Assembly: GCA_964016885.1 (NCBI GenBank)
Contig: CAXHJY010001420.1
Coordinates: forward strand, 1 to 25,248
Reading direction: 5' to 3'
From: Eledone cirrhosa
Taxonomy: Eukaryota
Length of the DNA: 25,248 nucleotides
Below are positions 19,201-21,994 of this stretch, piece after piece. The translations under genes and the position numbers were made by a program. The notes under the pieces were generated by a model, which was given only the letters and a program-made list of their open reading frames with translations, did not search any database and was not told the DNA's origin. Each line of letters starts with the position of its first letter. Positions within the stretch are counted from its first letter, which is position 1.

Positions 19201-19541
19201 GACTAATATAATATATATAATATACACACACACGCACAGGCGCACGCACGCACGCATGCACGCCCGCACAACACCACGAAAAAATATTGGATGCCAGAAG
19301 GGGGGGCCCACCTACATATAGAATGCTATCATTTAATTTTATAATGAATAACAAAACAGTACAACAAAATTTTTGCGGAAAAATATCTTCTTTCTCCAAT
19401 AAAAAATATTATGACCAGAAGTCGACCCTAAATATTACTAATAGCTCTAGGAAAGCCATGAACCATACCACATCACATCTTTTTAACTTTGATTTTGAAA
19501 GTAGGTTTATAATTATCAATTTTCATTATATTATTGTAGAT

Positions 19542-19638
19542 GTCTCAGTGGCCGAGTTGGGAGAATCGTAGACTGTGGTATTCCTGGTCTGGAGTTCGAT
19601 CATGGGTAGGGTTCCCGGTAAAACTTTTCAGTTTTTTT
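19542..19638 (+). ncRNA. tRNA-like Pol III cassette L1
   Basis: A-box TGGCCGAGTTGG 19549-19560, B-box GAGTTCGATC 19592-19601, T4 at 19625 and T7 at 19632; no canonical cloverleaf. Confidence 0.6.
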
Positions 19639-19657
19639 ATATTTAAAATAAAAACTG

Positions 19658-19736
19658 AAAAAAAGGTTGCATGCAAGATTGAACCGAAGACCAGGATACC
19701 CACCGTCTCTAGTACCTACCGCTAGGCCACAGAGAC
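19658..19736 (-). ncRNA. tRNA-like Pol III cassette R1
   Basis: Minus strand GTCTCTG-TGGCCTAGCGG (A-box), GGTTCAATC (B-box, 19685-19677), T7 at 19664-19658; 3' part shorter than in R2/R3. Confidence 0.55.
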
Positions 19737-20082
19737 TACTACAAAAACCTTATGAAAATTCATACTTATAAACCTACTTTCAAAAGTTCAGACCAAAGTG
19801 TTGTGGCGTCGTTCATGCCTTTCTTAATGTTATTGCTCCTACTTAAGGTCGACTCCTCAACCATTTGGGTGTTCCATAACCTACATCCTCATTTTCTTTC
19901 ACATCTATCTAGATTATATTTTAACCCGTAATCCATGTTTCATTTCTGTTGCACCTCATCTCTCTCTCTCTCTCTCTTTCTCTGTGATATTTGAATCAAC
20001 TATGATTTGGGCTTACCTCATTCCTATATACATGTTTTTACATGTTAGTTAGATTCAAACTTAACTTGATTGGCATTATATA

Positions 20083-20130
<48 letters not shown>

Positions 20131-20422
20131 TGTATATATATATAGTGGCGAACTAGGTCTAAAAATATTGGATGCCAGAAATGGGGCCCACCTACATATA
20201 GAATGCTATCATTTAATTTTTATAATAAATAACAAAACAGTACAACCAAATTTTTGCGGGAAAATATCTTCTTTCTCCAATAAAAAATAGTATGACCAGA
20301 AGTCGACCCTAAATAGTACTAATAGCTCTAGGAAAGCCATGAACCACACCACATCACATCTTTTTAACTTTGATTTTGAAAGTAGGTTTATAATTATCAA
20401 TTTTCATTATATTATTGTAGAT

Positions 20423-20519
20423 GTCTCGGTGGCCGAGTTGGGAGAATCGTAGACTGTGGTGATCCTGGTCTGAAGTTCGATCTTGGGTAGGGTTCCCGGT
20501 AAACCTTTTCAGTTTTTTT
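20423..20519 (+). ncRNA. tRNA-like Pol III cassette L2
   Basis: GTCTCGG-TGGCCGAGTTGG...AAGTTCGATC...TTTT (20506), T7 (20513). Confidence 0.55.
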
Positions 20520-20543
20520 ATATTGGTAGTAAAATAAAAACTG

Positions 20544-20633
20544 AAAAAAATGTTGCATGTACCTCTTGACCAGGATTGAACCGAAGACCAGGATCTCCAC
20601 CGTCTCTAGTACTTCCCGCTAGGCCACAGAGAC
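20544..20633 (-). ncRNA. tRNA-like Pol III cassette R2
   Basis: Minus: GTCTCTG-TGGCCTAGCGG...GGTTCAATCC...AAGAGGT (partial acceptor-stem pairing)...T7. Confidence 0.6.
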
Positions 20634-20990
20634 TACTACAAAAACCTTATGAAAATTCATACTTATAAACCTACTTTCAAAAGGTTCAGACCAAAGTGTT
20701 GTGGTGTCGTTCATGCCTTTCTTAATGTTATTGCTCCTACTTAAGGTCGACTTCTAAATCATTTGGATGTTCCATAGCCTACATCCTCGTTTTCTTTCAC
20801 ATCTATCTAGACTTTATTTTAACCCGTAATCCATATTTCATTTCTGTTGCACCTCATTTCTCTCTCTCTCTCTCTCTCACTCTTTATCTCTGTGATATTT
20901 GAATCAACTATGATTTGGGCTTACCTCATTCATATATACATGTTTTTACATGTTAGTTAGATTCAAACTTAACTTGATTGGCATTATATA

Positions 20991-21034
<44 letters not shown>

Positions 21035-21064
21035 GAAAAACCACAGACGTTTCATATCAACCCA

Positions 21065-21102
21065 CCTTTTGGAAAGCAGAAGAACTGCGAAACCGGTAAA
21101 GG
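21065..21102 (+). ncRNA. Variant minimal hammerhead ribozyme motif inside a ~145-bp insert in the (TA)n spacer
   Basis: CCTT-TTGGAAA-GCAG-AAGAA-CTGC-GAAA-CCGG-T-A-AAGG: perfect stems I and II, palindromic stem III (ACCGGT), core with U3-A8 covariation and an A6G change. Confidence 0.55.
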
Positions 21103-21171
21103 AACCAAATAAATATATATATTTTTTTAAAAAATAAGACTCCAGTTGCATTTTCGATTTCATCTCTTTTT

Positions 21172-21207
<36 letters not shown>

Positions 21208-21537
21208 TGTATATATATATATCTGTATATATATATGTCTGTATATATATATATAGTGGCGAACTAGGTCTAAACATATTGGATGCCAGAAATGGGACCC
21301 ACCTACATATAGAATGCTATCATTTAATTTTTATAATGAATAAATAACAAAACAGTGCAACCAAATTTTTGCGGAAAAATATCTTCTTTCTCCAATAAAA
21401 AATAGTATGACCAGAAGTCGACCCTAAATAGTACTAATAGCTCTAGGAAAGCCATGAACCACACCACATCACATCTTTTGAACTTTGATTTTGAAAGTAG
21501 GTTTATAATTATCAATTTTCATTTTTCTTTAGTAGAT

Positions 21538-21640
21538 GTCTCGGTGGCCGAGTTGGGAGAATCATAGACGGTGGTGATCCTGGTCTGGAGTTCGATCTTG
21601 GGCGGGTCTAGTGTTCCCGGTAAACCTTTTCAGTTTTTTT
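21538..21640 (+). ncRNA. tRNA-like Pol III cassette L3
   Basis: GTCTCGG-TGGCCGAGTTGG...GAGTTCGATC...TTTT (21627), T7 (21634). Confidence 0.6.
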
Positions 21641-21664
21641 ATATTGGTTGTAAAATAAAAACTG

Positions 21665-21754
21665 AAAAAAAGGTTGCATGTACCTCTTGACCAGGATTGA
21701 ACCCAAGACCAGGATACCCACCGTCTCTAGTACCTACCGCTAGGCCACAGAGAC
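21665..21754 (-). ncRNA. tRNA-like Pol III cassette R3
   Basis: Minus: GTCTCTG-TGGCCTAGCGG...GGGTTCAATCC...T7. Confidence 0.6.
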
Positions 21755-21994
21755 TACTACAAAAATCTTATAAAAATTCATACTTATAAACCTACTTTCA
21801 AAATGTTTAAAGCAAAGTGTTGTGGTGTCGTTCATGCCTTTCTTAATGTTATAGCTCCTACTTAAAGTCGACCTCTAAATCATTTGGGTGTTCCATAACC
21901 TACATCCTCGTTTTGTTTCACATCTATCTAGACTATATTTTAACCCGTAATCCATATTTCATTTCTGTTCCACCTCATTTCTCTCTCTCTCTCT

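Follow-up and report, generated by a model that had tools for sequence, protein, structure and literature searches.

In a stretch of 25,248 nucleotides from Eledone cirrhosa (contig CAXHJY010001420.1 of GenBank assembly GCA_964016885.1, positions 1 to 25,248 of the forward strand, hereafter termed the window), two tRNA-like RNA polymerase III (Pol III) cassettes face each other in a fold-back that is present three times, and this fold-back is the cargo of a real, well-defined mobile element, a hAT-type MITE (miniature inverted-repeat transposable element). The ends of the element, its target duplications, its empty and filled versions, its copy number and the layout of its promoters and terminators were directly observed. 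From these sequences we propose, with a probability of roughly 62%, that a non-autonomous cut-and-paste transposon, likely a hAT, carries the fold-back as its passenger, and that this fold-back derives from a Pol III-transcribed tRNA gene and its upstream flank, likely those of tRNA-Tyr, which became an inverted duplicate now existing in approximately 2,000 copies, the intact ones of which likely bind Pol III factors. An earlier note on this DNA had already proposed that a repeat carries two tRNA-like cassettes in a Pol III layout, and this proposal is supported by the present analysis.

Every block listed in that note could be located in the sequence, confirming the convergent cassette pair and its threefold occurrence. 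A perfect inverted 20-mer lies at positions 19493/19766, 20374/20663 and 21489/21784 and nowhere else in the window. It is accompanied by GAAAG blocks (19451/19811, 20332/20709 and 21447/21830) differing by one mismatch between the arms, by cassette starts at 19542/19736, 20423/20633 and 21538/21754, and by oligo-T blocks at 19625/19650, 20506/20536 and 21627/21657. The outermost mirrored blocks, placed by the note at 19420/19854, are present as well, but 19854 is the end of the right block, which starts at 19847, and the block is imperfect in copy 3. When the two arms of each unit were aligned with each other, 156/212, 166/224 and 156/214 positions were identical (73-74%). These alignments scored 169, 200 and 159, whereas the best of 300 shuffles each reached 34, 39 and 23. 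The three units share 86-93% identity in pairwise comparisons.

The consensus of both arms displays a type 2 Pol III layout, with an A box at +8 and a B box at +53, that is at tRNA spacing, followed by a double oligo-T stop, with a TATA-like sequence lying 36 to 30 bases upstream. The arms have retained this register closely: 11 of the 12 canonical tRNA positions are identical between them, the twelfth being a one-base shift of the D-loop GG, the distance from TATA to start is 36 nt in both, and no insertion or deletion separates TATA and B box. Intact copies would likely bind Pol III factors and are predicted to give two short RNAs that are not tRNAs. The cloverleaf has been lost and no anticodon arm can be recognised. 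As the earlier note had stated, the cassettes do not fold as normal tRNAs: ARAGORN detected no tRNA in the window or in two further loci (L012 and L115), a search of Rfam with E-values up to 10 on positions 19400-19900 and on a full copy returned no tRNA, vault or Y-RNA match, and with the whole window only microsatellite-driven microRNA matches were found among the best 150 of 269. Six of six cassette RNAs fold no better than shuffled sequences (z -0.76 to +2.06).

The note had compared the cassettes to tRNA-Asn and tRNA-Tyr. Within the cassette bodies the similarity proved weak and does not designate a single parent, whereas the block upstream of the cassettes does resemble the flanks of host tRNA-Tyr genes: of five distinct tRNA-Tyr flanks of the host, three align with the segment from -45 to -16 at P<0.05 (best 0.005), as against none of 16 flanks of other Pol III genes, and the resemblance includes the 3' half of the 20-mer. 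The cassettes share with the host tRNA-Tyr genes, which cluster on C1, the register of the boxes, part of the central sequence and a similar upstream block from -45 to -16, but differ from them in having no cloverleaf, no recognisable anticodon arm and no 15-nt intron. It is to be noted that within the host array of tRNA-Tyr genes (G000:C1:49.30-49.40 Mb, L366-L371) the otherwise diverged 5' flanks have in common a block from roughly -39 to -18, which suggests that a promoter element lies upstream.

The outer layer of the repeat is a non-coding element whose 14-bp terminal inverted repeat (TIR) was found at each end of 28 distinct elements, the window itself holding decayed left TIRs only. The flanks of 19 of these 28 two-ended elements match at 7-8 of 8 bases; among elements whose flanks are not microsatellites, 8/11 do so, and duplication lengths of 4-7, 9 or 10 do not fit. 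Short TIRs combined with 8-bp target duplications fit hAT, and by these characters the carrier is likely a non-autonomous cut-and-paste transposon of the hAT type. Several two-ended elements with 8-bp duplications contain the fold-back, indicating that the composite moved as one unit. Empty MITEs exist and have also transposed: when loci were picked by the left end, the core was found in 14/30 and the unfilled junction was visible at several others. The earlier statement that the repeat lacks target duplications is consequently true of the passenger but not of its carrier. The first 8 bases of the TIR are common to 2/30 loci encoding a DUF4371 hAT transposase. At one locus (L120, G000:C1:388.23 Mb), a two-ended MITE with a target duplication matching at 7/8 bases carries the core flipped relative to its flanks, as expected from recombination between the arms.

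The inner layer, termed here passenger X, is a non-coding segment of ~0.8 kb whose core is the fold-back; its two ends are fixed and lie at (TA)n, and they do not form inverted repeats. Its association with the MITE was measured in 55 loci picked by the cassette start, from which five duplicates had been dropped before counting. Both cassettes are present in 50 of them, and parts of the MITE lie at most 1.5 kb away in 49, of which 47 have them in the same orientation only. In 36/55 loci the left arm of the MITE and the edge of the fold-back are fused, and in 18/55 X displays its native left end, the fused form being the younger one (6.5% divergence as compared to 9.2% where the native left end is present). 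Dimers, whether tandem, partial or inverted, are common among the X loci, fold-back dimers being found at L015, L164 and L143. Two of 30 loci picked by an exact pattern are isolated fragments of unclear origin.

In the window, three fused units (left arm of the MITE plus X) stand in tandem with (TA)n between them and without the right end of the MITE. The repeat unit of ~800-840 bp exceeds the fold-back and takes in the left arm, and the triple is a local tandem expansion whose closest relatives are located on small contigs and close to an end of C20. Unit 1 (19280..20076, plus strand), as supported by module maps, consists of a hAT-type left arm whose TIR is missing, fused to an X that ends at (TA)n. 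Its fold-back opens with the ~120-bp upstream region of cassette 1A (19421..19541, plus), including the 20-mer (19493..19512, plus; 2,433 exact matches in the genome), whose TATA-like end lies 36 to 30 nt before the tRNA-equivalent position 1. Cassette 1A (19542..19637, plus) carries the A box at +8 and the B box at +53 and ends in an oligo-T stop. Facing it are cassette 1B (19650..19736, minus), which also ends in an oligo-T stop and in which the end of the B box is damaged by an 11-nt deletion, and the right-arm upstream region with its own 20-mer at 19766-19785 (19737..19853, minus). The right end of X (19854..20076, plus) comprises a unique part, (CT)n and the fixed end followed by (TA)n. 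Units 2 and 3 (20143..20984 and 21254..21995, both plus) each begin with a decayed left TIR (20143..20157 and 21254..21268, plus), and the X of unit 3 is truncated at (CT)n and continues into a TA-rich array of 3 kb. Four of the six cassettes have lost the final conserved C of their B box, namely 1A, 1B, 2A (20423..20518, plus) and 3A (21538..21639, plus), and the A box, B box and stop are all intact in the two others, 2B (20536..20633, minus) and 3B (21657..21754, minus).

A search of the microsatellite-rich 3.0-Gb genome with the core gave 3,278 first-look candidates, 40 of which were scored; the copies are 87-96% identical and lie on many chromosomes. Three exact patterns were found 2,433, 659 and 1,118 times (0, 0 and 1 times for the control patterns) and, once corrected for the frequency at which each pattern is retained in sampled copies, these counts correspond to an estimated 1,655-2,691 copies. 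Loci retrieved by pattern were drawn mostly from C1 and C2. Divergence was measured on 97 distinct copies, restricted to whole-core hits at 76% identity or more (137 hits before removal of duplicates), which differ from their consensus by 7.1% on average (range 3.9-14.5%); a second set of 165 copies was limited to hits with a length of 330 bp or above at 79% identity or higher. The arms of the consensus are 78.5% identical (21% divergence) as compared to 7% between copies and consensus, and the inversion therefore predates the amplification, in agreement with the old age that the earlier note had assigned to it. The differences between the arms are not clustered (P=0.068 for the longest run and P=0.50 by the runs test), and the block-wise conservation that the note had perceived between them is not significant.

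The note had also suggested that counting copies and following the conservation of each site across them would tell a functional module from a neutrally diverging MITE. The answers to this question were mixed: the host genome holds the number of copies estimated above and the carrier is a MITE whose A and B boxes decay neutrally, but the 20-mer of arm A has changed at only 0.41-0.47 of the expected rate, even with the copies picked by the 20-mer removed (arm B, 0.61-0.87). Among copies, the boxes vary as fast as base-matched sites, with ratios of 0.62-1.25, none of which reaches P<0.05. There is thus no sign of host selection on the inserted copies, since the boxes are no better conserved than base-matched sites. 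Intact boxes are found in 37 (cassette A) and 43 (cassette B) of the 97 copies, 19 having both cassettes intact and 61 at least one, as neutral decay at 7% predicts. The cassette bodies are slightly more variable than average (1.09-1.19). Sites that differ between the arms are also more variable among copies (0.084 vs 0.044 for A/T and 0.137 vs 0.086 for G/C), and uneven mutability could yield both this pattern and the constancy of the 20-mer. Any selection would so appear to have acted on master elements and not on inserted copies. We could not detect ongoing arm-to-arm conversion in inserted copies, the count at low-frequency sites being 284 when 265.5 was expected (P=0.15); at several high-frequency sites the minor allele is the base of the partner arm, which fits either subfamily history or conversion in masters.

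The succession of events leading to these elements can be tentatively reconstructed. A tRNA gene would have been captured together with ~120 bp of its flank and then duplicated in inverted orientation, the cloverleaf being lost while the TATA block, A box, B box, their spacing and the stop were retained in both arms. The (TA)n-bounded passenger would next have entered the internal (TA)n of the MITE, after which a deletion may have fused the left arm of the MITE to the edge of the fold-back. Amplification would have been ensured in trans by a hAT transposase, and unequal exchange at (TA)n would have reshuffled and tandemly expanded the copies, giving rise to the triple of the window. Both units stop after ~90 bases and cannot, for this reason, supply an RNA for transposition, so that any benefit would presumably come from factor occupancy. 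The value of the cassettes would most likely be to the master copies, where occupancy by Pol III factors may keep the DNA open, and not to the host. The predicted RNAs, of ~85-95 nt, ending in U and starting at or a few bases before positions of the 19542/19736 type, would likely be by-products.

Several observations weigh against the derivation of the fold-back from tRNA-Tyr and its transport by a hAT MITE. The retention of Pol III signals goes only modestly beyond chance, with P=0.056 for the boxes alone and P=0.006 when TATA and stop are added, a test that is partly post hoc. The similarity of the bodies is not specific to Tyr, the z-scores of the two arms being 5.0/3.6 for Phe, 2.4/4.1 for Asn and 3.0/2.0 for Thr as against 3.9/1.7 for Tyr, which was obtained in a separate comparison with different gap costs, and the match to tRNA-Tyr flanks would not survive correction for all 42 comparisons. 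A matching autonomous transposase was not found, none of 30 PF05699 and none of 30 PF14291 loci (of 150 matches each) having these ends within 1.5 kb, and the hAT label therefore rests on ends and target length. Furthermore, 7/20 copies with the native left end have no part of the MITE within 10 kb, four of them lying at the insertion site of another hAT and three being unexplained, and 10/16 loci with left arm plus core have no right end within ~9.7 kb. Since MITE transport alone accounts neither for these solo native-end copies (3/20) nor for the missing right ends (10/16), X may, though improbably, be mobile on its own.

X would in that case target (TA)n by itself, without inverted ends, as a Penelope-dependent or Crypton-like element, the MITE being secondary and the 20-mers serving as enzyme binding sites and not as promoters. 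Two fixed ends adjoining (TA)n, the abundance of tandem and inverted dimers together with the fold-back dimers and the flipped core of L120, and the greater age of the native-left-end copies, some of them solo, would all be consistent with such an element. So would the 20-mer of arm A, which is the best-kept block, and the fact that the 20-mer region shares 13/14 bases with the terminal hairpin of a (TA)n-inserting, tRNA-carrying family (family Y, described below); moreover, CryptonV elements are said to target microsatellites (PMC8869645). We nevertheless consider this improbable, as the orientation of X relative to the MITE parts is nearly constant (47/49), which is expected from a single capture, and the 20-mer occupies the TATA position and resembles tRNA-Tyr flanks. 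A full copy gave no match to an Rfam ribozyme (folds outside Rfam are not covered by this search), an RNA stage finds no echo in G-U bias between the arms (10 vs 11) or in hyper-editing (0/165 copies), and for a Crypton-like enzyme the DUF3504 search returned only 9 matches and no multicopy family, no direct search for tyrosine recombinases having been made. The absence of G-U bias and of hyper-edited copies also led us to reject selection for an RNA hairpin. That the module makes a functional RNA, either as two related small RNAs serving host or element or as a 220-bp read-through hairpin feeding editing or silencing, appears very improbable. The read-through RNA is predicted to be very stable (-204 kcal/mol, z -19), but such stability follows from any 75% inverted repeat, and although an intact cassette B has been homogenised in the ~20 units of a tRNA-Ser array on C1, the elevated variability of the cassette bodies, the lack of a conserved fold and the lack of pairing bias speak against a functional product.

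Another alternative retains the same MITE and regards the cassettes as a dead relic, a pure hitchhiker whose boxes survived by chance and which is of no use to element or host. This would account for the neutral decay of the boxes in the copies, for the unclustered arm differences, for cassette RNAs folding no better than shuffles and for the movement of empty MITEs, and it has a precedent in the headless SINE (short interspersed nuclear element) spread by MER6 (PMC6887750). It is nonetheless unlikely in our view, as the exact register, the TATA distance and the stop were kept by both arms despite the loss of the cloverleaf. The higher variability among copies of sites that differ between the arms fits constraint, and uneven mutability would give the same.

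When X is compared to known systems, the closest are MER6 and the TRIMp3 elements. MER6, a MITE of the Tc1/Mariner type, amplified a V-SINE inserted in it (Luchetti et al. 2019, PMC6887750). It resembles the present element as a short non-coding TIR element with target duplications amplifying an inserted Pol III-related sequence, but its SINE has lost the head, whereas X keeps two complete facing units from promoter to terminator, with their flanks and without SINE body or tail. TRIMp3 elements (Helenus, Ajax and Cassandra) have kept promoters derived from tRNA or 5S genes in their long terminal repeats (LTRs) and lost the RNA fold (Kojima 2024, PMC10886601), and X resembles them in what was kept. 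The same source attributes to them direct LTRs, a primer binding site (PBS), a polypurine tract (PPT), duplications of 4-5 bp and a promoter thought to drive the transposition RNA. The arms of X, in contrast, are inverted, its units stop after ~90 nt and its carrier belongs to the DNA transposons and makes 8-bp duplications (no search for PBS or PPT was made in X). X can be likened to MER6 as a passenger and to TRIMp3 in what it kept, and belongs to neither; the X-bearing element, which is analogous to the TRIMp3 elements, is best regarded as a cargo-carrying MITE. A burst of TIR elements at ~9% divergence, a depth similar to that of the X/MITE family, is reported for Octopus vulgaris (PMC13282606). 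In titles and abstract openings of the literature we found no description of X or of any DNA transposon bearing Pol III units in pairs; a consensus for X may exist in Repbase, Dfam or the supplements of PMC13282606.

Pol III promoters in mobile DNA are explained by the need for a transposition RNA, as in SINEs and TRIMp3, and a DNA transposon needs none. The retained promoter layout would need to serve another end, for instance chromatin protection or nuclear positioning. A possible but rather doubtful extension is that cut-and-paste and (TA)n-inserting DNA elements form an undescribed class carrying complete Pol III genes of their own as an adaptation, the DNA-transposon counterpart of TRIMp3. 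The facing units of X would then recruit TFIIIC and TFIIIB to protect or position the element, and hundreds of intact Pol III sites would have been seeded genome-wide. The ~2,000 dispersed copies include both intact and broken sites, between which Pol III occupancy and barrier effects could be compared in a cephalopod-type genome. Should the boxes be a relic, the element would be an ordinary MITE with an odd passenger and would matter mainly for the annotation of repeats and tRNAs.

Family Y, found at L183, L185-L193 and L267-L296 (C1-C5, C28 and others), is AT-rich and ~1.7 kb long, and its ~85 copies (106 pattern matches against 20 for the control; 24/30 loci) are 92-97% identical. It inserts at TA and has a left terminal hairpin, present in a flipped-loop form in L193, an arm of which provides the 13/14-base match to the 20-mer region of X, as well as a 180-bp internal inverted repeat. 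It carries an intact tRNA-like gene with its flank, called as Ala(GGC) by ARAGORN, and is the source of 10/16 Rfam tRNA hits. This suggests that in the genome of Eledone cirrhosa cargo of the Pol III type is more than an isolated case.

Other candidates for the identity of the cassettes were discarded. The cassettes share with tRNA-derived SINEs, including octopus families, a tRNA-like head with A and B boxes, but they are not SINEs: as the earlier note had recognised, there is no body or tail, an oligo-T stop follows immediately, and native upstream DNA accompanies all 60 of 60 sampled cassette 5' ends. Octopus tRNA-derived SINE families were reportedly described by Ohshima and Okada in 1994. 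Vault RNA genes resemble the cassettes as Pol III units of ~90 nt with internal boxes and an upstream TATA-like sequence, a layout similar to that of the hybrid-promoter Pol III gene EBER, but the cassettes do not match RF00006 and the host's own vault-like genes are unrelated to them. The latter form a tandem cluster of two types (G000:C3:221.18-221.25 Mb, L257-L266), in which each gene has an upstream TATA and an oligo-T end, and 14/16 RF00006 hits are above the family cut-off. A U6-type promoter was rejected as well: a motif near -70 of three distinct host U6 flanks is absent, by eye, from the cassette flanks, and the U6 flanks did not align at -45 to -16. The motif, octamer-like and accompanied by a TATA box near -30 in the host U6 genes (L031-L040, including an array on C19), is a candidate proximal element for the lineage. 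A gapped pattern combining promoter and start had no match in viral contigs and none in metagenome contigs. A search of sequencing runs returned three runs of unspecified kind from one study and no RNA data set containing the module, a result that does not bear on expression.

Circular permutation of X, or Helitron-type ends inside it, was likewise rejected, the apparent breakpoints being insertions of another hAT at an 8-bp site. This second hAT family, whose ends we take to be Charlie-like, inserts repeatedly at that one site inside X (L201-L202, L205-L206, L209-L210 and L217-L218), leaving a permuted X between a short copy and a longer, transposase-bearing copy, which could form a composite transposon. 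The C1 array (G000:C1:441.19-441.22 Mb, L432-L435), considered as a host gene array from which X might have originated, was rejected as a source because it is an array of tRNA-Ser(TGA) genes holding half a MITE. Its ~20 tandem units of 1.68 kb include the right half of the MITE with the intact, homogenised cassette B.

Within the window, a fragment of an abundant SINE-like repeat lies directly 5' of unit 1 (19047-19180), and a 140-bp fragment of another common repeat, also found at L019 and L228, separates units 2 and 3 (21030-21173). The end of the contig (25140-25248) is a perfect fold-back palindrome, which may represent the stub of a retroelement or else result from the assembly.

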